Source of the DNA: Patescibacteria group bacterium
Lineage (GTDB): Bacteria > Patescibacteriota > Patescibacteriia > Patescibacteriales > WJLG01
Assembly (NCBI GenBank): GCA_028707065.1
Contig: JAQTUZ010000004.1
Coordinates: 6,656-70,655, forward strand
DNA length: 64,000 bases
Direction of reading: 5' to 3'
The notes beneath the pieces are model-generated. The model did no database searches, was not told the DNA's origin, and worked only from the letters and a program-made list of their open reading frames with translations. Shown in pieces: positions 12,448-64,000 of the stretch. A program made the position numbers and the translations under genes. Within the stretch, counting starts at the first letter, position 1; each line of letters starts with the position of its first letter.

Positions 12448-12504
12448 CCAATATTCAAAATAATAAATAAACAGTTTGATATCTGAATTTTCGCCAATAA
12501 ATGG

Positions 12505-12714
12505 TATTCAACCGCAGGTCAAGACCCGCCCCCCTATCTTTTCTGTTGGGTGTCCCCGCCACAAGTGGACGAGATCTTTATCGGCGCTCGCTCGGAAATA
12601 ATCCCCGCGAGGCGCGGGATCATTTCACTCACTCGCTTGATAAGCAAGGTTATCGGCGCTCGCTCGGAAATAATCCCCGCGAGGCGCGGGATCATTTCAC
12701 TCACTCGCTTGATA
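12505..12714 (-). repeat. copy 1 of a ~136-nt structured intergenic element (reverse orientation, with an internal duplication)
   Basis: The reverse complement aligns along its length with 44223-44358 and 62522-62657: TATCAAGCG…GAAAT(A/G)ATCCCGC-loop-GCGG(G/A)GATTATTTC…AGAAAAGAT…TTGA(A)TACC. Confidence 0.85.
12579..12714. repeat. perfect 64-nt direct repeat x2 (period 72 nt)
   Basis: TATCGGCGCTCGCTCGGAAATAATCCCCGCGAGGCGCGGGATCATTTCACTCACTCGCTTGATA occurs at 12579-12642 and 12651-12714, separated by AGCAAGGT. Confidence 0.95.
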
Positions 12715-12747
12715 ATAAAAAAAGACCGGTCGCGAGATCGGTCTTTT
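12715..12747. terminator. bidirectional intrinsic terminator-like hairpin
   Basis: A-run, AGACCG-N10-CGGTCT, then T-run. Confidence 0.6.
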
Positions 12748-29677: not shown

Positions 29678-32443
29678 ATGCCGAAAAACAAGAAACCCGC
29701 GAAATTATCTTCCGTCCGCCCTGGGCGGACTACGGCGGACAAGCCCGCCTCCGCCAAGGCTACGGCGGACAAGGGCGGAAAAAAGCATAAAGTCGAGAGA
29801 AAAGAGGAGAAAGAAAAGAAAGTGGATAAAAAATCCATAGCTATTCCTGTTGGCGAAGTTGCGGCCGATAAAGCGGAGAAGAAGCAGCCTAAGCTGGAAA
29901 ATCCCGTTTCCGCCAAGGCTATGGGGGACAAGCCGGAGGACAAGGGCGAGATGGTCGGGCTGCAGCCTAAATCCGGCATGGGACAATCACGGACCATGTA
30001 TGGCTTGGTGCAAACCCAGCCGATCGTCGAAGAAATGAGCCGGTCATATTTGGATTACGCGATGAGCGTAATTGTTTCGCGCGCCTTGCCTGACGTCCGC
30101 GACGGCTTGAAACCGGTGCACCGCAAGATTTTATACGCGATGTGGGATATCGGCTTGCGCGCCGGCGGTAAATTTAGAAAATCAGCTACGGTCGTCGGCG
30201 AGGTCTTGGGCAAATATCATCCGCACGGCGACAGCGCCGCTTATGAATCGATGGTCCGCATGGCGCAGGATTTTTCCATGCGCTATCCGCTCGTCAAAGG
30301 CCAGGGAAACTTCGGTTCGATGGACGGCGATTCGGCCGCGGCCATGCGTTATACCGAAGCCAAGCTCTCGGCGATTTCCGAGGAGATGCTTTTTGATATT
30401 GATAAAAATACTGTTGATTTCATACCGACTTATGATGGTTCGCATCTTGAGCCGAGCGTTCTGCCATCCAAATTACCCAATCTTTTATTGAACGGCACCA
30501 TGGGCATCGCCGTCGGCATGTCCACGGAAATCCCGCCGCATAATTTGCGCGAACTTTCCGACGCCATCGCTTATCTGATCGAAAAACCGGATGCGACAGT
30601 CGAAGATCTCTGCCAATTCGTCAAAGGCCCGGATTTCCCGACCGGCGGAATTATTTATAATCAGAAAGATATCGAATCGGCTTACGGGACGGGCAAAGGC
30701 GGGATCGTGATGCGCGGCGTGGCCGAGATCGAAGAAATGAAAGGCGACAAATTTCAGATCGTCATTTCCGAAATACCCTATCAGGTTAATAAGGCGACTT
30801 TAGTGGAAAAGATCGCCGAGTTAGTGACAGAGAAAAAGATCGATGGCATCCGCGATTTGCGCGACGAATCCGACCGCGAGAAAAGCGTGCGCATCGTGAT
30901 TGAATTAAAGAAAGATGCTTATCCGAAAAAAGTTTTGAACGCCTTGTTCAAGATGACCGCCCTGCAATCAACCTTTCATGTCAATATGCTCGCCTTGGTC
31001 GACGGCATCCAGCCCAAGGTTTTGAATTTGAAATCGATTTTGGAAGAATATATCAAGCATCGCGAAGTGGTGGTCAGGCGCCGGACGCAATATGATCTGG
31101 ATAAAGCCAAGGATCGCGCCCATATTTTGGAAGGCTTGGTGATCGCTTTGGAAAATATCGATGCCGTCATCAAGACGATCAAAGCTTCCCGCGACAAGGA
31201 TGACGCGAAAATAAATCTGATCAAGAAATTCAAGCTGACCGAACGGCAGGCGATCGCCATTTTGGAAATGAAACTCCAGCAATTGGCCAATCTGGAAAGA
31301 TTGCGCGTCGAGGAAGAACTGAAAGAAAAGAAAAAATTGATCGCCGAATTGGAAGCGATCTTAAGATCAAAAACTAAAATATTAAGCATCGTCAAAACGG
31401 AATTGAAAGAATTGGCTGATAAATACGGCGATGAGCGCCGCACCCAAGTCGTCGCCCGCGGCGTTAAGGATTTTAGCATTGAAGATCTGGTGCCGAACGA
31501 AGAGGCGATCGTGATGATGACCCGCGATGGCTATATCAAGCGCCTGCCGCCTGATACGTTCAAACAGCAGGAACGCGGCGGCAAAGGCGTGATCGGCTTA
31601 TCGACCAAGGAAGAAGATACGGTGGAATTCATGTTCACCACCATGACTCATACTGATCTGCTATTTTTTACTACCAAGGGGCGTGTTTTCCAATTAAAGG
31701 CTTATGAGATTCCCGTGGCCTCTAGAACGGCCAAGGGCACGCCGATCGTTAACTTCCTTCAATTATTGTCCGAAGAAAAAATAACTTCCACTTTGCCTTT
31801 GGACAAGATCGTCGGCGCGGAATATTTATTCTTTGCCACCGAGCAAGGCTTGGTGAAAAAAGTCAAGCTGGAAGCTTTTGCCAATGTCCGCCGCTCCGGA
31901 TTGATCGCCATTAAAATAAAAGGCGAAGATAAATTGATCTGGGCCAAGCCGACTTCTGGCACTGACGATATCCAATTGATCACTTCCGAAGGCCAGTCGA
32001 TCCGTTTTGCCGAAGATGATGTTAGAGAAATGGGCCGCAATGCCGCTGGCGTCCGCGGCATCCGCCTCAAGGGCAAGGATGTGATGGTCGGCATGGGCGT
32101 AATTTCCACTGATAAAGAAAGAGTGAAAAAATATCAATTGATCAGCATTATGGCCAACGGTTTTGGCAAGCGCTCGCCGCTTTCTCTCTATAAAGTTCAG
32201 GGCCGCGGCGGTTCAGGCATCCGCACCGCGCATGTCACTGACAAGACCGGCAAATTAACCAACGCTTTCGTAGTCAATGCCGAAACTATGGCTGACCGCG
32301 ACCTCATTATTATTTCTGAAAAAGGCCAGGTGATCCGTCTGCCGTTCAAGCAGGTTAACGAACTCGGCCGCGACACCCAGGGCGTCCGGGTGATGCGCTT
32401 CAAGGAAGAGGGCGACAAGGTCGCCTGCGTAACCTGGGCCTAG
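29678..32443 (+). CDS. gyrA: DNA gyrase subunit A (start ambiguous; possible ~100-aa Lys/Ala-rich N-terminal extension)
   Basis: [33 protein letters not shown], the active-site region AAMRYTE, and C-terminal beta-pinwheel repeats. Alternative in-frame ATGs at 29951, 29978 and 29996 would give a canonical N-terminus. Confidence 0.95.
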
Positions 32444-32517
32444 CCCCCCTCCTTTCGAAGGAGGACCCCCCTCCTTTTCAAGGAGGGGTTTGGGGGTGGT
32501 TCTGGGGGTGGTTCTGC
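32444..32517. repeat. GC-rich palindromic element, intergenic reference copy (two hairpins plus a GGGGGTGGTTCT x2 tail)
   Basis: CCCCCCTCCTTTCGAAGGAGG, then CCCCCCTCCTTTTCAAGGAGGGG, then TTTGGGGGTGGTTCTGGGGGTGGTTCTGC directly after the gyrA stop. Confidence 0.9.
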
Positions 32518-32567
32518 GGGGAGGGCGGGGGCGATTTCAGATTTACGATTTTCGATTTTTTTGTTTT

Positions 32568-44168: not shown

Positions 44169-44221
44169 GTCCGTTTCAATCACTGTGTTGCAAAACATGG
44201 TGGTCGAAACGGACTTTTTTA
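44169..44221 (+). terminator. intrinsic terminator (long loop)
   Basis: GTCCGTTTC-N28-GAAACGGAC followed by TTTTTT. Confidence 0.6.
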
Positions 44222-44222
44222 T

Positions 44223-44358
44223 TATCAAGCGAAGCGAGTGAAATAATTCCGCTACGGCGGAGATTATTTCCGAGCGAGCGATGATAAATACCTCGTCCGC
44301 TGGTGGCGAGGATACCTTTTAGAAAAGATGGGGCGAGTGCCTGCCCCGCGATTGAATA
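44223..44358 (+). repeat. copy 2 of the ~136-nt structured intergenic element
   Basis: TATCAAGCGAAGCGAGTGAAATAATTCCGC-TAC-GGCGGAGATTATTTCCGAGCGAGCGATGATAAATACCTCGTCC…GGCGAGGATACCTTTTAGAAAAGATGGGGC…GCCCCGCGATTGAATA. Confidence 0.85.
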
Positions 44359-44496
44359 CCATTTATTATTACAATTAAGAAATTGATTTAATTGGCAAAA
44401 AACAAGGGGTAAGATATAATATATAACAAAGAACAGGGAACAAAGAGCAATGCGTTAATAATTATTTTATACTCTTTGATTTATGTTCTTTGATCA

Positions 44497-57307: not shown

Positions 57308-59266
57308 ATGGCGGGAAGAAGGATCATCATTTTAATTTTTGTTTTAGGCGCATCGGCGGTCATCTTGGCCGCCGGTGCGTTTGTATTGGAGAAAAAGAAT
57401 TTTTCCGCGGAAAAGGCGATCAGCCCGGATCGGCCGGCTAATGAAGCGGTGAATGAATCGGCGCATATTTTTCCTTATGATCGTAATCTTTTCAATTCAG
57501 CCATCAGTAAAAATTATCTTGAGCGAATGGCGACGAGCGGGCCGGTCATTGCCGGCCTGGTGCCGCATCATGAGTTGGCCGGGGATCTGGCCGCGGAATT
57601 TTTTTCCTCGCTGGCGCAAAAACAAAAAGTTAATAATTTCATTGTCATCGGACCCTTGCACTCGGATCAAGCGGTCGGCCCCGCGGTAAGCGGGCGGTTT
57701 ATCTGGGATGCCGGGTTTGGCCAGGTGGAAAATAATTATGAAATACTGGACGATCTGGTCGCGGCTCATTTGGTGGTTTATGACGAGAATGCGGTGCGGA
57801 GCGAGCACGCTCTTTATAATATGGCGCCGTTCATCGCCCATTATTTTCCGGAGGCGAAGATCGCGCCGATCGCCTTGACTTCGCGTAATTCTCCGGAACA
57901 ATGTTTCGCTTTGGCTCAGGCTCTGCAGAAATATCTGGCCCAAGGGGATACGGTGCTGGTCGCCTCGATCGATTTTTCCCATTATCTTCCGGCTGATCAA
58001 ACTCCGGCCAAAAATTTGCGAATGATCGAGTTGATAAAAAATAAGGATTACCAGACGATTGCCGGCCTGGCCAATGATTATTTGGATTCGCCCCCTTCGC
58101 TTATCACCTTGCTTAAGGCCGCTGATCTGTCGGATGCCGGCGTTAATATTTTAGCTTCGACCAATTCCGGAGAAATTACCGGGACGCCGGTTCTTTCTTC
58201 AACCAGCTATATCAGCGCCTTTTTTGCCGTCCCCCTCCTTTCAAATGAGTCTGTCCCCGCGAAGGCGGGGAAGGGGTCTGGGCCCGTCTCGGTTTTACCT
58301 ACAGCGTCCAGTAGTCCCTTGAAGCTGCTTTTTTTCGGCGACATTATGCTTGATCGCCAGGTCGGCGAAAAGATCAAGGCTTCGGGAAGCTTGGACTGGA
58401 TCTTCAAGGGCTTGAATTCGACCGGAATTTTTCAAGGCAATGATATTGTTTCCGCCAATCTGGAAGGCGCGGCCACTGATAATGGCGCGCATTATCCGCC
58501 GGCCTTGGTTTTTGATTTTGCTTTCGCGCCCAAGCTGGTCGGAGAGCTCGCGAAATATAATTTTAATTATTTTAATCTGGCCAATAATCATTTAGCCGAT
58601 CAGGGCAAAAATGGTATAATAGAGACAGAGAAAAATCTTACTGATCTGGGTTTTGTTTTTGCCGGCTGCCAGGATCGCCAAGTCGGCGACTGCACGGCCA
58701 AAATTGTGGAGAAAAGCGGCCGCCAGATCGGGTTGATCGGCGCGAGCATGGTTTATGGCGCGCTTGATGAAAACCGCCTGATCGCCGAAGTAAAAAAGCT
58801 GGCCAGTTCCACCGATTTAGTGGCGGTGCAAATACATTGGGGAACGGAATACAAGCACGAGGCGGCGGCCAACCAAACCGTTTTGGCGCGCAAATTGATC
58901 GATGCCGGCGCTGATATCATCATCGGCCATCATCCGCATGTGGTCGGCGGGGTGGAACTATATAAAAATAAGCCGATTTTTTATTCGCTGGGGAATTTCG
59001 TTTTTGATCAGTATTTTTCTCTTGATACGCAGGAAGAGTTGGGAGTGAGGATAGCCGTAACCACCCCCAAACCCCTCCTTGGAAAGGAGGGGGGCGAGGG
59101 GAAAAATTTCCAGATCGATCTTTTGCCGATCAAATCGGAAGCCGGACGCTTGCGCCTGATGAATAACGCGGAGAAAGATAAATTTTTGACCAAGCTGGCG
59201 GGCTGGTCGATCGGCGATAAAAATTTTTTGTCGGAAGTCGGAGCGGGTAAAATAGTTATTGAATAA
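57308..59266 (+). CDS. fusion protein: Memo-like (AmmeMemoRadiSam B-type) N-domain plus CapA/PGA_cap metallophosphatase C-domain
   Basis: N-terminal TM helix. Memo-like blocks are GLVPHHELAG and ASIDFSHYLP. CapA-like blocks are LLFFGDIMLDR, ANLEGA, NLANNHLADQG, GHHPHVVGG and YSLGNFVFDQ. Confidence 0.7.
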   Translation: MAGRRIIILIFVLGASAVILAAGAFVLEKKNFSAEKAISPDRPANEAVNESAHIFPYDRNLFNSAISKNYLERMATSGPVIAGLVPHHELAGDLAAEFFSSLAQKQKVNNFIVIGPLHSDQAVGPAVSGRFIWDAGFGQVENNYEILDDLVAAHLVVYDENAVRSEHALYNMAPFIAHYFPEAKIAPIALTSRNSPEQCFALAQALQKYLAQGDTVLVASIDFSHYLPADQTPAKNLRMIELIKNKDYQTIAGLANDYLDSPPSLITLLKAADLSDAGVNILASTNSGEITGTPVLSSTSYISAFFAVPLLSNESVPAKAGKGSGPVSVLPTASSSPLKLLFFGDIMLDRQVGEKIKASGSLDWIFKGLNSTGIFQGNDIVSANLEGAATDNGAHYPPALVFDFAFAPKLVGELAKYNFNYFNLANNHLADQGKNGIIETEKNLTDLGFVFAGCQDRQVGDCTAKIVEKSGRQIGLIGASMVYGALDENRLIAEVKKLASSTDLVAVQIHWGTEYKHEAAANQTVLARKLIDAGADIIIGHHPHVVGGVELYKNKPIFYSLGNFVFDQYFSLDTQEELGVRIAVTTPKPLLGKEGGEGKNFQIDLLPIKSEAGRLRLMNNAEKDKFLTKLAGWSIGDKNFLSEVGAGKIVIE

Positions 59267-59293: not shown

Positions 59294-59860
59294 ATGAAAT
59301 TTTTTGAACCAAAAAGCCGGGGGGCGAATTTATTCCGCGATCTGGCGATTATTCTTTTTAGCATCATTATTACGATTTTGTTGATAAAAACCGGCGTCCT
59401 GAACACTTTATTGGCCGGAACTCAACAGGTAAAAATATTAGGAAGTTTTATCGCGGGAATGTTTTTTACTTCCATCTTCACGACCGCGCCGGCAACGATA
59501 ACTTTGGCGGAGCTCGCCCGCTCCAATTCTATTTGGCAGGTGGCGATTTTCGGGGGGATAGGGGCGACGATCGGGGATTTGGTTATTTTTCAATTTCTTA
59601 AAAATGAATTGGTCGAAGATTTTTCCGGCTTGGTTAAGAAGTACGGTTCGAAAAGAGTTATCGCGATCTTCCACCTGAAATTTTTGCGCTGGTTTTTTGC
59701 TTTTTTGGGAGCGCTGGTGATCGCCTCGCCCTTGCCCGATGAATTAGGGCTGGCAATGATGGGGGTGTCTAAGGTCAAAACCCGGGTCTTTATTCCTCTG
59801 TCTTTCGCGCTTAATACCTTGGGAATTTTGATTATCGGCCTGATCGCCAAATCATTATGA
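59294..59860 (+). CDS. membrane protein (4-5 TM helices)
   Basis: 188 aa and hydrophobic. Overlaps the next gene by 4 nt (ATGA). Confidence 0.55.
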   Translation: MKFFEPKSRGANLFRDLAIILFSIIITILLIKTGVLNTLLAGTQQVKILGSFIAGMFFTSIFTTAPATITLAELARSNSIWQVAIFGGIGATIGDLVIFQFLKNELVEDFSGLVKKYGSKRVIAIFHLKFLRWFFAFLGALVIASPLPDELGLAMMGVSKVKTRVFIPLSFALNTLGILIIGLIAKSL

Positions 59861-61005
59861 AAATATCCAAGAATTACTTTATGGCCGTGGCGGTTTTGGT
59901 CGGCGCGATTACCGGCGCCGGAGTTTTTGCCATGCCTTTTGTTTTGACTCATTCCGGTCTTTGGCCGTTTGTTTTTTGGTTTCCCATTTTGGTCGCGGTC
60001 CAATGCCTGATCCATCTTCTTTTTGCCAAAGTCATTTTGTCCACCAAGGGCTTGCACCGCGTTCCCGGCTACACGGAAATTTATGCCGGAAAGAATTGGA
60101 AAAAAATTGTTTCGATTTTTGCCGTAATCGGCGGCTGGGGCACGATCCTGGCCTATATAATTTTGGGCGGCGTCTTTTTTAATCAGTTTTTTTCCCCGCT
60201 GATCGGGGGCAGCCTTTTCACTAATTCGCTCATTTTTTTCGCCTTGGAAACTGTGGTGGTCATTGCCGGATTAAAGACGATCGCGGGATCGGAAATGATT
60301 TTTTCCTTTTTACTCCTTATTTTATTCGTGGTGCTGTCGGTCAAATGCTTCGGCCGGTTTGATCTGAGCAATTTTACGGCGGTCAATTGGGAGGATTTTT
60401 TTCTCCCTTATGGCGTGATTTTTTTCGCGATTGGCGGCGATGCGGCCATTCCGGAAGTGGTAAAACTTTTGGATAAGGAAAAGGAAAAAATAAAAAGCGC
60501 GATCTTGTGGGGGACGATCTTGCCCGCGGTTATGATGTTTATTTTTGTGATCGCCACGGTCGGGGCAATGGGCGCGTTGACTACCGCAGACGCTTTGTCT
60601 GGATTGAACAAATTTTTCGGCAATGGCTTTGTTTCCATCTCCCTGCTTTTCGGCTTAATTTGCATTGCCACTTCGTTCTGGGTATTTGCCCAAGCGGTGC
60701 GGGAAATATTCTGGTGGGACTTTAAGATCAATAAGTATTGGTCGCTGGTTTTAGCCGTCGGCGTTCCGCTGGCATTTTTTATTTTCGGCTTTACTAATTT
60801 GACGACAGTCGTTTCTCTTTCCGGCGCGATCACCAGCGGCGTTTTAGGAATTATTCTGATTTCTCTGACCGCGGCCGTGGACCGTGAGGGGCAAAAAAAA
60901 TCGCCCATCGCCATTAAAACTTCCCGGCCGTTGGCGATCGTTTTGTATTCTCTTTTCATTGTCGGGTTTTTGACCGAGCTGTGGACGATAATTTTTAAAT
61001 TATGA
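59857..61005 (+). CDS. amino-acid permease-like transporter (~11 TM helices)
   Basis: The N-terminus …AVAVLVGAITGAGVFAMPFV… is typical of amino acid/aromatic amino acid permease families. 382 aa and polytopic. Confidence 0.65.
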   Translation: MKISKNYFMAVAVLVGAITGAGVFAMPFVLTHSGLWPFVFWFPILVAVQCLIHLLFAKVILSTKGLHRVPGYTEIYAGKNWKKIVSIFAVIGGWGTILAYIILGGVFFNQFFSPLIGGSLFTNSLIFFALETVVVIAGLKTIAGSEMIFSFLLLILFVVLSVKCFGRFDLSNFTAVNWEDFFLPYGVIFFAIGGDAAIPEVVKLLDKEKEKIKSAILWGTILPAVMMFIFVIATVGAMGALTTADALSGLNKFFGNGFVSISLLFGLICIATSFWVFAQAVREIFWWDFKINKYWSLVLAVGVPLAFFIFGFTNLTTVVSLSGAITSGVLGIILISLTAAVDREGQKKSPIAIKTSRPLAIVLYSLFIVGFLTELWTIIFKL

Positions 61006-61571
61006 AAATCGCGGTAATTTCCGATCTTCACGATAATCTGGTCAACTTGAGAAAATGTCTCTCTTGGTGCGGGCAAAATAATATCGAGAAGCTGATCTGC
61101 TGCGGCGACGTGACCAACGCGGAGACGCTGGGAATTCTTTCCCGGGAATTTAAGGGAGAAATTTTTTTAGTCCGCGGCAATTTGGAGATCTACCAAGAAG
61201 AAGAAATCGAGCCTTATAAAAATTATACTTATGGCGGGCGGCTTGCCGGCCATAGCCTTGGCGACGGCCGGACGGCGATTTGGGAGATTGATGGAAAAAA
61301 AGTCGGCGTCTGCCATGAACCTTTTTTTATCAATCAAGTTTTAGCAAAAGCAAAATCCCCCCTCCTTTCTAAGGAGGGGTCTGGGGGTGGTTCTGCAAAG
61401 GCGGCGGACATCGTCTTTTACGGCCATACTCATAAGCCCTGGATCGAAGAAAAAGACCATGTTCAAATAGTGAATCCGGGAACTTTGGGCGGAGTCTTCA
61501 CTCAGCCGACTTTTGCTGCTTGGGATACCGTGAGTGGTAAACTGGAATTAAAATTGCTGAATAATCTCTAA
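61002..61571 (+). CDS. YfcE/MJ0936-type metallophosphoesterase
   Basis: MKIAVISDLHDN, CCGDV, VRGNLE and FYGHTHKP motifs. Carries a 14-aa insertion encoded by the GC-rich palindromic element. Confidence 0.8.
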   Translation: MKIAVISDLHDNLVNLRKCLSWCGQNNIEKLICCGDVTNAETLGILSREFKGEIFLVRGNLEIYQEEEIEPYKNYTYGGRLAGHSLGDGRTAIWEIDGKKVGVCHEPFFINQVLAKAKSPLLSKEGSGGGSAKAADIVFYGHTHKPWIEEKDHVQIVNPGTLGGVFTQPTFAAWDTVSGKLELKLLNNL

Positions 61572-61596
61572 TTTAAACTCCAAAATCTTCACTTAA

Positions 61597-62382
61597 ATGA
61601 ATATTGATCGGCAAATTAAACAAATCGCGATCAACGCGGCCAAACAGGCCGGTAAGGCTTTGAGCGCGGAATATTTCCGCTTCAATCGGGCCGACGTCCA
61701 GATGAAATCGCGCTTTGAAATTTTGACCCGGGCGGATCTTTTGAGCGAGGAAATTATTTTAAAAGAGATCAGGCGTAATTTTCCGCATCACCATATTTTG
61801 TCCGAAGAAACCGGCGATAATAAAGCGGTGTCGGATTATTTTTGGATCATTGATCCTTTGGACGGAACCACTAATTTTTTCATGCGCGATCCAATGTGGT
61901 CGATCTCGATTGCCTTGGCTTATCAAGGCGAATTGATCTTGGGGATTGTTTACGCGCCGATCTTGGGTGAATTTTATCTGGCCGAAAAGGGTGAGGGCGC
62001 AACCTTGAATGGTCGATCAATAAAAGTTTCCGATATCAGTAAAAATCAGGTAGTTAATTTGTTTTGTCATGGTCATAATGATCCGGCCATAAAAAAGGCC
62101 GTGAAATATTATACCTATCAGAAAATTCATGGTTTTGATTCTCGGCAGATAGGATCGGCCGCGCTGGAATTGGCTTATACTGCCGGAGGCCGGGTTGAAT
62201 CGATCTCGATTCCGGGCGCTGATCTTTATGACGTGGCTGCCGGCGTGCTTTTGGTCAAAGAAGCGGGCGGAAAAGTGACTGATTTGAAAAATAAGGAATG
62301 GACAATTGCCAGTCAGGACATGGTCGCTTCTAATGGCAAGGTCCATCAGGATGTTTTGGGTGTTTTTAAGAAAATCAGCTAA
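61597..62382 (+). CDS. suhB: inositol monophosphatase family protein
   Basis: ILSEETG…, WIIDPLDGTTNF, and the C-terminal WD-like block (…DVAAGVLLVKEAGG). Confidence 0.85.
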   Translation: MNIDRQIKQIAINAAKQAGKALSAEYFRFNRADVQMKSRFEILTRADLLSEEIILKEIRRNFPHHHILSEETGDNKAVSDYFWIIDPLDGTTNFFMRDPMWSISIALAYQGELILGIVYAPILGEFYLAEKGEGATLNGRSIKVSDISKNQVVNLFCHGHNDPAIKKAVKYYTYQKIHGFDSRQIGSAALELAYTAGGRVESISIPGADLYDVAAGVLLVKEAGGKVTDLKNKEWTIASQDMVASNGKVHQDVLGVFKKIS

Positions 62383-62396
62383 AGACCTTAAGGCTC

Positions 62397-62425
62397 TTGA
62401 CAGCTTTTTTGATTTGTAATATAAC
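62397..62425 (+). promoter_or_regulatory. sigma-70-like promoter (TTGACA-N17-TATAAC)
   Basis: Read directly, 15 nt after the suhB-like stop. Confidence 0.5.
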
Positions 62426-62429
62426 ACAA

Positions 62430-62522
62430 TTAAGTGGGTGAATTCCCTGTTTAATGGTGTTAGTCGAAGCAGTATGGGCTTTGCTCGAACGAAGCAATCG
62501 TTTTGGCAAAGCCCTTTTTTTT
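62430..62522 (+). ncRNA. candidate ~90-nt small RNA (promoter-to-terminator unit without an ORF)
   Basis: Bounded by the promoter at 62397-62425 and the terminator GGGCTTTGC-N21-GCAAAGCCC-TTTTTTTT (62476-62522). The loop contains CGAAGCAATCG, as does the terminator at 62854-62903. Confidence 0.35.
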
Positions 62523-62657
62523 ATCAAGCGAAGCGAGCGAAATAATCCCGCGACAGCGGAGATTATTTCCGAGCGAGCGATGATAAATACTTCGTCCGGC
62601 GGCACGCGAGGATACCTTTCAGAAAAGATGGGTGCGGGGATTGCCTTGCGCTTGATA
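62522..62657 (+). repeat. copy 3 of the ~136-nt structured intergenic element
   Basis: Terminal inverted repeat TATCAAGCG…CGCTTGATA. Internal hairpins are GAAATAATCCCGC-GACA-GCGGAGATTATTTC, CTTCGTCC…GCGAGG and GCGGGG-ATTG-CCTTGC. Confidence 0.85.
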
Positions 62658-62752
62658 CCATTCGTTTGTTATAATTATCTTGGTTCATTCAGCCCCTTTT
62701 CTGGCATGAAAAGGGATATCCGCATTTCAACCCCTTTAAAGAGAGGTGAATT

Positions 62753-62830
62753 ATGCTTCACTTTACCATCGGCCAAAACATTGGCCCTCCGGCGATCATA
62801 GTCGCCAAAAAAACAGCGCGCATCAAATAA
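62753..62830 (+). CDS. possible 25-aa micropeptide (MLHFTIGQNIGPPAIIVAKKTARIK)
   Basis: Strong SD AGAGAGGTG 4-5 nt upstream of the ATG, followed by its own terminator. Too short to support further. Confidence 0.25.
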   Translation: MLHFTIGQNIGPPAIIVAKKTARIK

Positions 62831-62853
62831 GAAAAAAGTGCGTGGTGTTGGTC

Positions 62854-62903
62854 GGGTTCTGGCTAAGCGAAGCAATCGCTTGGACAGAACCCCCTATTTT
62901 TTT
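62854..62903 (+). terminator. intrinsic terminator
   Basis: GGGTTCTG-N23-CAGAACCC followed by CTATTTTTTT. Confidence 0.8.
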
Positions 62904-62909
62904 ACACGC

Positions 62910-62937
62910 TTGATCGGTGGAAAAAAATTGCTACAAT
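62910..62937 (+). promoter_or_regulatory. sigma-70 promoter (TTGATC-N16-TGcTACAAT)
   Basis: Read directly. It drives a ~300-nt unit holding only two tiny overlapping ORFs (17 and 15 codons, ATGA overlap). Confidence 0.55.
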
Positions 62938-63219
62938 TATATTCTGTTCCTTTGCTCATTATTATTTAAATTTATCTAAATATTATCCCCTGTAAAAAGG
63001 GGAGTTGGCAATAAACCTTCCACTTTCAAAAATAGAAAGGACAACCGTCTATGATTGTATCGATCAGCACGTCACAAGCGGCCGCCAAAACGCAAACCGC
63101 ATGAAGAAGCCGGCGTTACCAATGAAAGGGGAAAAAGATGAGGCATAAACACCCTCTGCCAAGGGATTCTCCCTAGGAAAATAGTGTCGGAATATATCCG
63201 ATAGTTAGGGCAAATTCGG

Positions 63220-63254
63220 CGGAAGCAAGACTAAGGTCTTCGCTTCCGTTTTTT
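63220..63254 (+). terminator. intrinsic terminator
   Basis: CGGAAGCAAGAC-TAAG-GTCTTCGCTTCCG followed by TTTTTT. Confidence 0.8.
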
Positions 63255-63265
63255 AAAATGTGGTA

Positions 63266-63294
63266 TTGACAAATTTTATAGAATGTGATAATGT
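63266..63294 (+). promoter_or_regulatory. consensus sigma-70 promoter (TTGACA-N17-TGaTAATGT)
   Basis: Read directly, 12 nt after the preceding terminator. Confidence 0.65.
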
Positions 63295-63334
63295 TAAAAT
63301 ACGAACGTTGAAAAGATTATAGCCGGTTTTAGAG

Positions 63335-63363
63335 CCACTGGGAAGGCGTCCCAATGGTTTTTT
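63335..63363 (+). terminator. early hairpin plus T-run (attenuator-like) ~40 nt after the predicted transcription start
   Basis: CCACTGGGA-AGGCG-TCCCAATGG (one C/A mismatch) followed by TTTTTT. Confidence 0.5.
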
Positions 63364-63885
63364 GTTCCACCTTAACTATCCCAACCCAGCGCGGGTGCCG
63401 GATAATAGAAAGAGAAAGCATACATTCGCCGCCTGTTTTCATTGTTTCGGTAAACACATTTTCTCAACACGGGCCACGGACCTACTGTGGACACAGGAAG
63501 CAGTGGGGCCAGTTCTGTACCGGCAGGAACTAAAATACTTGTCCGGACATTGTTGCCTGCACTCCCCATCGGGACCCCGCACGGGCGGTAAACCGAGGCT
63601 CCAGGCAACGCGATGCGCAATCGACAATCGCCGCCACCAACGACATCATTTCCTGCGGCGACGCGCAAAACCTCGTTCCTTTAATGCGCGCTACGTTCTG
63701 TCGATATGAAGAACGAGCAATTCCAACCACGAAATCCAATCCCGGGCTAACGTGACATTGGCCCAAAGGAAAGGGACATCATGCGAAGAAAATTCGCCTA
63801 TGAAAGTCGAGCAGCGCCGCAGGCACTGACATCCTGAATCTTCAGGGGCAGCAACCTGCAAGGCTGACTGTCTACGATAGCATAC

Positions 63886-63922
63886 GGGAGCGAGATTGAT
63901 CTAATCAACTCGCTCCTTTTTT
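63886..63922 (+). terminator. intrinsic terminator
   Basis: GGAGCGAG(A)TTGAT-CTA-ATCAACTCGCTCC followed by TTTTTT. Confidence 0.85.
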
Positions 63923-64000
63923 AATATCCAATATCAAATAATAAATATCAAAAAAATATTATAATATTTAAATATTTTTTAATATATCGGTTATTTGATA

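Follow-up and report, generated by a model that had tools for sequence, protein, structure and literature searches.

A 36-nt triplex-class repeat read in frame in a phosphoesterase gene of a Patescibacteria group bacterium, and its relatives in other genes and phyla

A stretch of 64,000 nt from a Patescibacteria group bacterium (GenBank assembly GCA_028707065.1, contig JAQTUZ010000004.1, positions 6,656 to 70,655 of the forward strand; hereafter, the window) was analysed. An earlier reading of its letters alone (the sequence-only reading) had described a GC-rich palindrome inserted in frame in a metallophosphoesterase gene at 61357-61396. Position, strand and frame were all confirmed. The core is indeed palindromic, but that description was incomplete, as the element consists of three blocks: a pyrimidine arm CCCCTCCTT, a purine arm AAGGAGGGG and a G/T tail GGGGTGGTT. 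It is probable that this copy, designated copy C, is a 36-nt repeat of the intrastrand triplex class which has spread as a discrete unit and is tolerated in a loop of the phosphoesterase, its peptide needing no function of its own. The 40-mer CCCCCCTCCTTTCTAAGGAGGGGTCTGGGGGTGGTTCTGC lies on the + strand within an open reading frame (ORF) of 189 aa and is translated in the frame of that ORF, in sense orientation, as SPLLSKEGSGGGSA. The host gene and the parts of copy C are as follows.

61002..61571, + strand: host gene of copy C, an MJ0936/YfcE-type metallophosphoesterase of 189 aa, with two in-frame inserts at residues ~81-90 and ~119-132
61357..61396, + strand: copy C, the 36-nt triplex motif with a lineage-specific 3' extension (TTCTG, then C)
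61357-58, + strand: start of copy C, CC
61359-67, + strand: pyrimidine arm, CCCCTCCTT
61368-70, + strand: loop, TCT
61371-79, + strand: purine arm, AAGGAGGGG
61380-83, + strand: spacer, TCTG
61384-92, + strand: third strand (G/T tail), GGGGTGGTT

When reversed, the tail mirrors the purine arm, with G opposite G and T opposite A. The window contains three intact 36-nt copies (A, B and C; consensus CCCCCCTCCTTTYNAAGGAGGGGTYTGGGGGTGGTT), and all of them exhibited a perfect 9/3/9/4/9 scheme with nine perfect triplets. The three-block pattern was found neither in 20 + 10 shuffled sequences nor with a non-mirror template, and the hairpin pattern had no match in shuffled sequence. With arms of 9 nt, a loop of 3 nt and a spacer of 4 nt, the element falls within the published ITxF ranges (stem 6-15 nt, loops 1-6 nt; PMC4666352), and its three consecutive blocks on one strand, the third mirroring the purine arm, are those of a class II (purine-motif) intrastrand triplex. 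A scan of 628 kb of related loci for this architecture gave 167 mirror hits, compared with 18 for the control. The mirrored tails tracked different stems (AGGGGAGGG/GGGTGGGGT, GGAGGAGGGG/GGGGTGGTGG, GGGAGAGGGG/GGGGTGAGGG and GGGGAAGG/GGATGGGG), and stem and tail covaried in at least six stem families. Outside the main family, 20 perfect mirror tails were obtained against 8 perfect ones in the direct-order, non-mirror control, which is an imperfect control because the G-rich arms are nearly symmetric. In a variant unit at locus L002, A instead of T stood opposite A; the purine motif allows either.

ViennaRNA returned only a 9-bp hairpin for the element, with unremarkable z-scores. This was uninformative about the triplex, because the program is unable to evaluate such structures. 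Scanning of the whole window with Rfam (gathering thresholds) and for tRNA and tmRNA revealed no RNA gene. Purine-motif triplexes do not form in RNA (PMC4666352), which indicated that any structure-dependent properties of the element belong to DNA.

The host ORF matched Metallophos_2 (PF12850, E = 2e-26) in Pfam, and its closest solved relative, both by sequence and by fold, was the MJ0936 phosphodiesterase (2ahd/1s3l), with a TM-score of 0.74/0.84 against 1s3l. The domain, the D-x-H/GD/GN-x-E/H/GH-x-H motifs and the calcineurin-like fold are those of an MJ0936/YfcE-type enzyme. In an alignment of 38 homologs the metal-binding motif residues were invariant or nearly invariant, and all of them are present in the window protein (D8/H10, G35-D36, G59-N60, H105 and G141-H142-T143-H144). 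The gene is under purifying selection (pN 0.098 vs pS 0.80, against its ortholog at locus L001). The claim that the ORF stays open with its catalytic motifs intact was therefore sound, and the insert-bearing enzyme most likely keeps working. Its length of 189 aa compared with a modal homolog length of 163 aa. The AlphaFold model had a mean pLDDT (predicted local distance difference test) of 90.9, with weak patches only at the two inserts. The copy C insert (residues 119-132) was placed between helix 107-118 and strand 137-140, with a mean pLDDT of 58 for the block 121-130, in agreement with the surface loop that had been proposed. It ends 5 residues upstream of FYGHTH, just before that block as had been stated.

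Comparison with orthologs demonstrated that copy C is an indel, as anticipated. The closest ortholog (P0002, at L001), which is 83% identical over the aligned columns and has the same gene neighbourhood, lacks copy C. At this site L001 reads ...CTG GCT AAA GGT AAG TGT GAC..., relative to which the window is longer by 16 codons, not by the 14 that had been given. Of 120 homologs, 87 had the short form of the segment and 33 had extra residues. A similar loop in other homologs was the observation that the sequence-only reading had set against an insertion. P0021 and P0022 did carry a similar peptide at the site, but their DNA turned out to be copies of the same repeat family. Insert-bearing homologs did not group together but were interspersed with insert-free ones; on a neighbour-joining tree of the core columns, which is rough for so short a protein, parsimony required no fewer than 20 gains or losses. 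This scatter and the same-family DNA in P0021 and P0022 argued for recurrent insertion rather than an ancestral loop.

The DNA of the homologs revealed at least three triplex-motif families at this loop site. L076 had a composite unit whose spacer encloses a small hairpin (CCCCTCC GCG GGAGGGG TGGCCGAAGGCC GGGGTGG), L002 had tandem triplex units, and in L003 the triplex units were broken up by other tiny repeats. The inserts of P0010 and P0003 were judged from close relatives (L080, L075/L078) or from the protein sequence only. All inserts at the site were preceded by an A-rich stretch ending in T, as in ...AAAAT. The reuse of the site could reflect either a target preference or the small number of permissive loops in a compact fold.

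The other copies in the window, their host gene and the neighbouring hairpin are listed below.

59059..59094, - strand: copy B, the 36-nt motif in opposite orientation with a perfect 9-triplet scheme; the host frame reads VTTPKPLLGKEG
57308..59266, + strand: host gene of copy B, a Memo + PGA_cap (CapA-like metallophosphatase) fusion of 652 aa, which also hosts the decayed linker copy
58231..58288, + strand: decayed copy in the Memo-PGA_cap interdomain linker, the fourth locus
32444..32530, + strand: copy A cluster, intergenic, directly after the gyrA stop codon (32441-43)
32568-96: separate terminator-like hairpin, downstream of the copy A cluster

The match of the copy C 40-mer to the copy downstream of gyrA (32466-32505) was real, with 36 rather than about 37 of 40 positions identical; 35 of 40 positions agreed with the - strand copy B (59055-59094). 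Identity among the 36-nt cores was 94-97%. Against the orthologs of both L001 and L003, copy B proved to be an indel of exactly 12 codons (36 nt), and comparison of the occupied with the empty ortholog showed no target-site duplication. An exact 36-nt indel between occupied and empty orthologous sites showed that the element comes and goes as one discrete unit. The Memo/PGA_cap gene, too, is under purifying selection. This in-frame copy 2 kb upstream, like the other insert of the phosphoesterase (RLAGHSLGDG), had been absent from the earlier description; in-frame occurrence of the element extends beyond the phosphoesterase gene.

The decayed linker copy retains an intact pyrimidine arm (58232-40) and a remnant of the tail; its purine arm has mutated (AATGAG) and is interrupted by a nested 24-nt hairpin, TCTGTCCCCGCGAAGGCGGGGAAG (58250-73). 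At the orthologous linker position L003 has an intact copy (SPLLSKEGSGGGSV) and L001 a tail-mutated one. Three of the four window loci, the decayed copy included, lie inside ORFs, so that of the coding insertions of this element in the window one is old and two are younger. Tiny GC-rich hairpins nested inside triplex motifs were seen in the window linker copy, in L003 and in L076; one of L003, GTCCTGAGCGTAGCCGAAGGA, is translated as VLSVAEG.

The intergenic cluster after gyrA is composed of a tail-less degenerate hairpin (32446-66) and the full motif (32466-32501), besides which it contains a further copy of the tail, GGGGGTGGTTCT, and additional G-rich sequence. A terminator role for this cluster was rejected, because a separate canonical terminator-like hairpin lies 40-70 nt beyond it and because PIT elements were without terminator activity (PMC4666352).

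When species-representative genomes were searched with the exact pattern (28 specified positions), 71 stretches from many phyla were retrieved. They included Patescibacteria (Falkowbacteria, Uhrbacteria, Saccharibacteria, Taylorbacteria and Parcubacteria), Bacteroidota and relatives (several Adhaeribacter isolates with many copies, Hymenobacter, Prevotella, Balneolaceae and Ignavibacteria), the large sulfur bacteria Thiomargarita and Thioploca, and further Terriglobia, Nitrospiraceae, Geobacteraceae and Spirochaetota. The boundaries of the element were constant across copies and the flanks were unrelated. Loops and spacers carried lineage-specific signatures: the spacer was TTC in 13 of 13 Adhaeribacter copies, TTC/TTA/TTAT was found in all three copies of one Uhrbacteria genome, and TTT/TCT spacers with the TTCTG 3' extension were common to the window, Falkowbacteria and L003. 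These signatures suggested amplification within lineages.

By an ORF criterion, 12 of 25 copies in Patescibacteria were coding-like, compared with 7 of 55 in other groups (Fisher P = 0.001); most copies outside Patescibacteria were intergenic, at no fixed position relative to genes. The hosts confirmed by Pfam or orthology were a GatA-type amidase, TGT, an ELP3-like radical-SAM enzyme, an ATP-grasp enzyme, ComEC (two copies, in opposite orientations), CysRS, a second radical-SAM enzyme and the delta subunit of DNA polymerase III. Among 12 verified in-frame copies, the frame reading PLLxKEG was used in 11 (P = 5e-5), with 6 copies in sense and 6 in antisense orientation. The same peptide arises in both orientations because the core is palindromic. 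On inspection, stop codons were rare in all six frames of the element; the frame bias was therefore best explained by selection on the peptide, and the lack of an orientation bias argued against a role at the RNA level. In L034, a Spirochaetota metagenome-assembled genome, about six element-derived peptides in one frame (TTPxPLLxKEGS, TTPxPSSGKEGS and similar) are scattered through a giant repeat protein encoded by a ~2600-codon RHS/YD-type ORF. In L073, a fragment of an Uhrbacteria CysRS, the segment joining the catalytic domain to the DALR domain holds two different triplex-motif peptides next to each other, TTPLPLLKKEGS then SPPFQGGVGGGY; they look like tandem insertions, each translated in a frame of its own.

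Knowledge of intrastrand triplex motifs goes back to 2000, that of BoxC to the 1990s. To judge by sequence, the element is of the same class as TM_ECO but of a different sequence family: the window arms CCCCTCCTT/AAGGAGGGG/GGGGTGGTT did not match the TM_ECO/BoxC consensus (CCCTCNCCC N3-6 GGGNGAGGG N3 GGGNGAGGG), CCCCTCCTT standing in the place of CCCTCNCCC. Like the window element, TM_ECO has a 9-nt C-rich arm, a loop of 3-6 nt, a 9-nt G-rich arm, a short spacer (3 nt, against 4 nt in the window element as parsed) and a 9-nt mirror G/T(A) arm. Both comprise 36 nt in total, belong to the purine-motif class II, occur in high copy number as single, inverted-pair and clustered copies, and are extremely conserved in sequence with variable loops; no associated transposase, phage or plasmid has been found for either. 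As an isolated strand, TM_ECO/BoxC/PIT formed a stable triplex in vitro, as followed by circular dichroism, nuclear magnetic resonance and melting (Holder et al. 2015, PMC4666352). In the same work TM_ECO was found in 262 proteobacterial genomes, was always intergenic in E. coli MG1655, acted neither as a promoter nor as a terminator, and was not linked to a transposase; the authors did not decide between insertion and deletion in the course of its evolution (PMC4666352). In contrast, the window family occurs in Patescibacteria, Bacteroidota, large sulfur bacteria, Acidobacteriota and others, nearly half of its Patescibacteria copies are coding-like, and clean occupied and empty orthologous sites, unavailable for TM_ECO, were found here.

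The closest parallel for translation in frame is provided by the Rickettsia palindromic elements (RPE; Ogata et al. 2000, as summarised in PMC10969869). RPE are palindromic selfish repeats that lie in frame in unrelated housekeeping genes of a small, host-dependent genome and are translated where the fold can accommodate them, all of which resembles the window element. They differ in being ~150 bp long (~100-150 bp per unit, ~35-50 residues), in being restricted to Rickettsia and in having no known triplex architecture. The window element, of 36 nt (12 residues), is about a quarter of that size, crosses phyla and gives the same core peptide in both orientations; its unit length, its Patescibacteria host and the lack of a larger conserved flank place it outside the RPE.

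Elements far below the size of a miniature inverted-repeat transposable element (MITE) are also known from cyanobacteria, where Elhai et al. in 2008 reportedly described SDR elements, very small mobile dispersed repeats of 21-27 nt with conserved secondary structure and compensatory changes, nested insertions and no known transposase. We know of no triplex architecture described for them; they share their small size with the window element and differ in sequence and host. Repetitive extragenic palindromic (REP) sequences and bacterial interspersed mosaic elements (BIME), which are served by RAYT transposases, and MITEs are likewise short, structured, dispersed and sometimes clustered. The window element seems to differ from REP in having neither a GTAG nor a CGTC tag (none in 80 copies), and no RAYT or other transposase was found nearby in 71 loci of 8 kb. 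It further differs from MITEs in that terminal inverted repeats are absent apart from the hairpin and target-site duplication is not consistently seen, copy B being an exact 36-nt indel without duplication and the flanks being unrelated among copies.

The following model is proposed. In single-stranded DNA the pyrimidine arm would pair with the purine arm into a 9-bp hairpin, and the tail would fold back antiparallel on the purine arm to give G.G:C and T.A:T triplets, so that the element may actually adopt the triplex fold. It would multiply within genomes as a discrete unit, presumably on single-stranded DNA during replication or repair, with the fold possibly underlying its spread. One copy would have landed in the loop before the GHTH strand of the phosphoesterase and another in the neighbouring Memo/PGA_cap gene. 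Survival in genes would be favoured by a unit length that is a multiple of three and by the near-absence of stop codons in six frames. It would further be favoured by a used frame whose product is hydrophilic and flexible (PLLxKEG with SGGGS after it or TTPK before it), and by sites that are surface loops or interdomain linkers. The peptide would then be a neutral, tolerated passenger.

Several results weigh against this model. The E. coli motif gave no detectable triplex in vivo or in double-stranded DNA (PMC4666352). The copy C site is 48 nt, not 36 nt, longer than the empty site, and copy C is flanked by an imperfect GCAAA(A/G)GC direct repeat, an ambiguous sign of target-site duplication. 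In an all-against-all comparison of 1502 ORFs from the 71 loci of 8 kb, no shared mobility gene was found. No exact match to the element occurred in 2.9 million viral contigs, and BLAST gave no match in PLSDB plasmids, a search of low sensitivity with a 53-nt query. Between L001 and L003 the linker copy keeps 10 of 11 synonymous codon choices, against a gene-wide background of 50% (P = 0.006, one pair), a hint of gene conversion, re-insertion or constraint on the DNA itself, so that the element is perhaps not strictly neutral. Neutral selfish spread does not readily account on its own for 36-nt sequences that are identical from phylum to phylum.

A bolder proposal, which we put forward tentatively and think rather unlikely to hold in full, is that triplex motifs are pan-bacterial ultra-small (36-nt) mobile DNA whose single-stranded fold is the substrate for copying and insertion and which routinely colonises coding sequences in Patescibacteria, where it is kept intact at the DNA level. 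If so, the substrate would be recognised either by an enzyme acting in trans that has so far escaped notice or by a conserved replication or repair activity of the host, and motifs maintained by gene conversion or re-insertion would be a steady source of new protein loops and linkers in the gene-dense Patescibacteria. The sole recurrent item among the 71 loci was a DUF559 (PF04480) endonuclease-like gene in four of them, ~15-80 nt from the motif in three loci (Bacteroidota, Gammaproteobacteria) and 1 kb away in the fourth. It possibly marks an association with a mobile endonuclease cassette and, given the few cases, serves as a lead only.

L006, 5262-5608: DUF559 gene
L008, 7199-7596: DUF559 gene
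L045, 7713-7995: DUF559 gene
L063, 1600-2982: DUF559 gene

The tail might alternatively be kept for protein binding or as part of a G-quadruplex, the element being a REP-like hairpin or G-quadruplex former with incidental triplex potential. The purine arm and tail hold four G-runs, which could permit a two-tetrad quadruplex. The hairpin-only result of ViennaRNA, the undetected in vivo triplex of the E. coli motif (PMC4666352) and the non-zero direct-order control (8 perfect, against 20 perfect mirror) point the same way. Nevertheless, in at least six stem families the T/A interruptions of the tail lie exactly mirror-opposite the A's of the purine arm, which neither a quadruplex nor a generic G-rich tail predicts, and the GTAG/CGTC tag typical of REP (PMC3733652) is absent from the sequence; we regard this explanation as unlikely. 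A role in the mRNA was also considered, in which the GC-rich 9-bp hairpin, predicted to be stable, or the Shine-Dalgarno-like AAGGAGG would pause ribosomes or stabilise the transcript. AAGGAGG reads as the canonical Shine-Dalgarno core and, because the element's core is palindromic, is in the mRNA in either orientation. Such a role would leave the conserved tail unexplained, as purine-motif triplexes do not form in RNA. Moreover, PIT elements neither acted as promoters or terminators nor affected RNA polymerase (PMC4666352), and the copies outside Patescibacteria are mostly intergenic without a fixed position. A function at the RNA level is thus quite improbable.

Two further explanations concern the protein. 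In the phosphoesterase and the Memo/PGA_cap protein, the SKEGSGGGS-type peptide, which is rich in glycine and serine, could have been co-opted to work as a flexible linker or as a regulatory loop. The linker copy stands at the same position in three diverged lineages, and one reading frame is strongly preferred. That preference is, however, equally explained by purifying selection against hydrophobic or arginine-rich frames. The closest orthologs appear to do without inserts B and C, other lineages have unrelated sequences at the phosphoesterase site, and the insert is predicted with low confidence, as an unstructured segment; co-option therefore seems improbable. An ancestral loop of the phosphoesterase subfamily, lost by most relatives, was rejected as highly improbable. 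The extra residues in 33 of the 120 homologs, two of them with a similar PLLxKEG peptide, are what it would lead one to expect, but the 36-nt core is 94-97% identical to copies in unrelated contexts of the window, the inserts at the site come from several unrelated sequence families, their bearers are scattered, with at least 20 changes by parsimony, and the nearest ortholog has no insert. An assembly artefact was rejected on this evidence as well. The reading as a tolerated triplex-class repeat is accordingly preferred.

The triplex class as such has already been described; colonisation of coding sequence extends a class so far characterised as intergenic. In the literature searched, no in-frame gene colonisation by triplex motifs, exact occupied and empty sites or cross-phylum family was found, and full-text searches of work on the candidate phyla radiation brought up nothing relevant on triplex or palindromic repeats lying in frame. 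The in-frame copies in essential genes are a natural record of insertion events with their orientations, frames and ages. The occurrence of one sequence family in distant phyla with lineage-specific subfamily signatures, the occupied and empty sites and the coding copies make the question of mobility tractable by comparative genomics. Beside the RPE of Rickettsia, the element would be a second and far smaller example of selfish DNA that ends up translated. Since PLLxKEG... and TTPxPLL... peptides recur in Patescibacteria proteins, they risk being mistaken for conserved motifs and giving spurious homology.

The other insert of the phosphoesterase is unrelated to copy C and comprises 10 residues.

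61239..61268, + strand: RLAGHSLGDG insert, non-triplex, residues ~81-90

Its DNA agreed at 23 of 30 nt with positions 29906-29935, reverse-complemented, which encode SAKAMGDKP in the N-terminal extension of gyrA. SAKATADK-like units recur in that extension (29729-29935), as a second small repeat family translated in frame. The non-sister homolog P0003 has an identical 10-residue insert at this site, and P0006/P0029 have a different palindromic insert there, PPSPDGFGEAS. A third insertion site was seen at alignment columns 77-94 (P0053, P0070 and P0059), after the ...ETLEILA helix; judged from the protein sequence, peptides such as TYNSPFERGALRAGCVK at this site resemble translated GC-rich repeats.

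A further dispersed repeat family of ~70-160 nt was observed in the window, at 12578-12715, 44216-44377 and 62515-62677. Positions 12578-12715 form a perfect 66-nt tandem duplication, inverted copies lie near 12500-12608, and the copies at 44216-44299 and 62515-62598 are 93% identical. The region 62400-64000, which holds one of these copies, contained no convincing long ORF, no Rfam hit at the gathering threshold and no tRNA. In the syntenic L001 a P-type ATPase gene separates the phosphoesterase gene from that of inositol monophosphatase; the window has none there (61571-61597), and relative to L001 it has an extra 188-aa ORF (59294-59860, no Pfam hit) between the Memo/PGA_cap gene and a permease.

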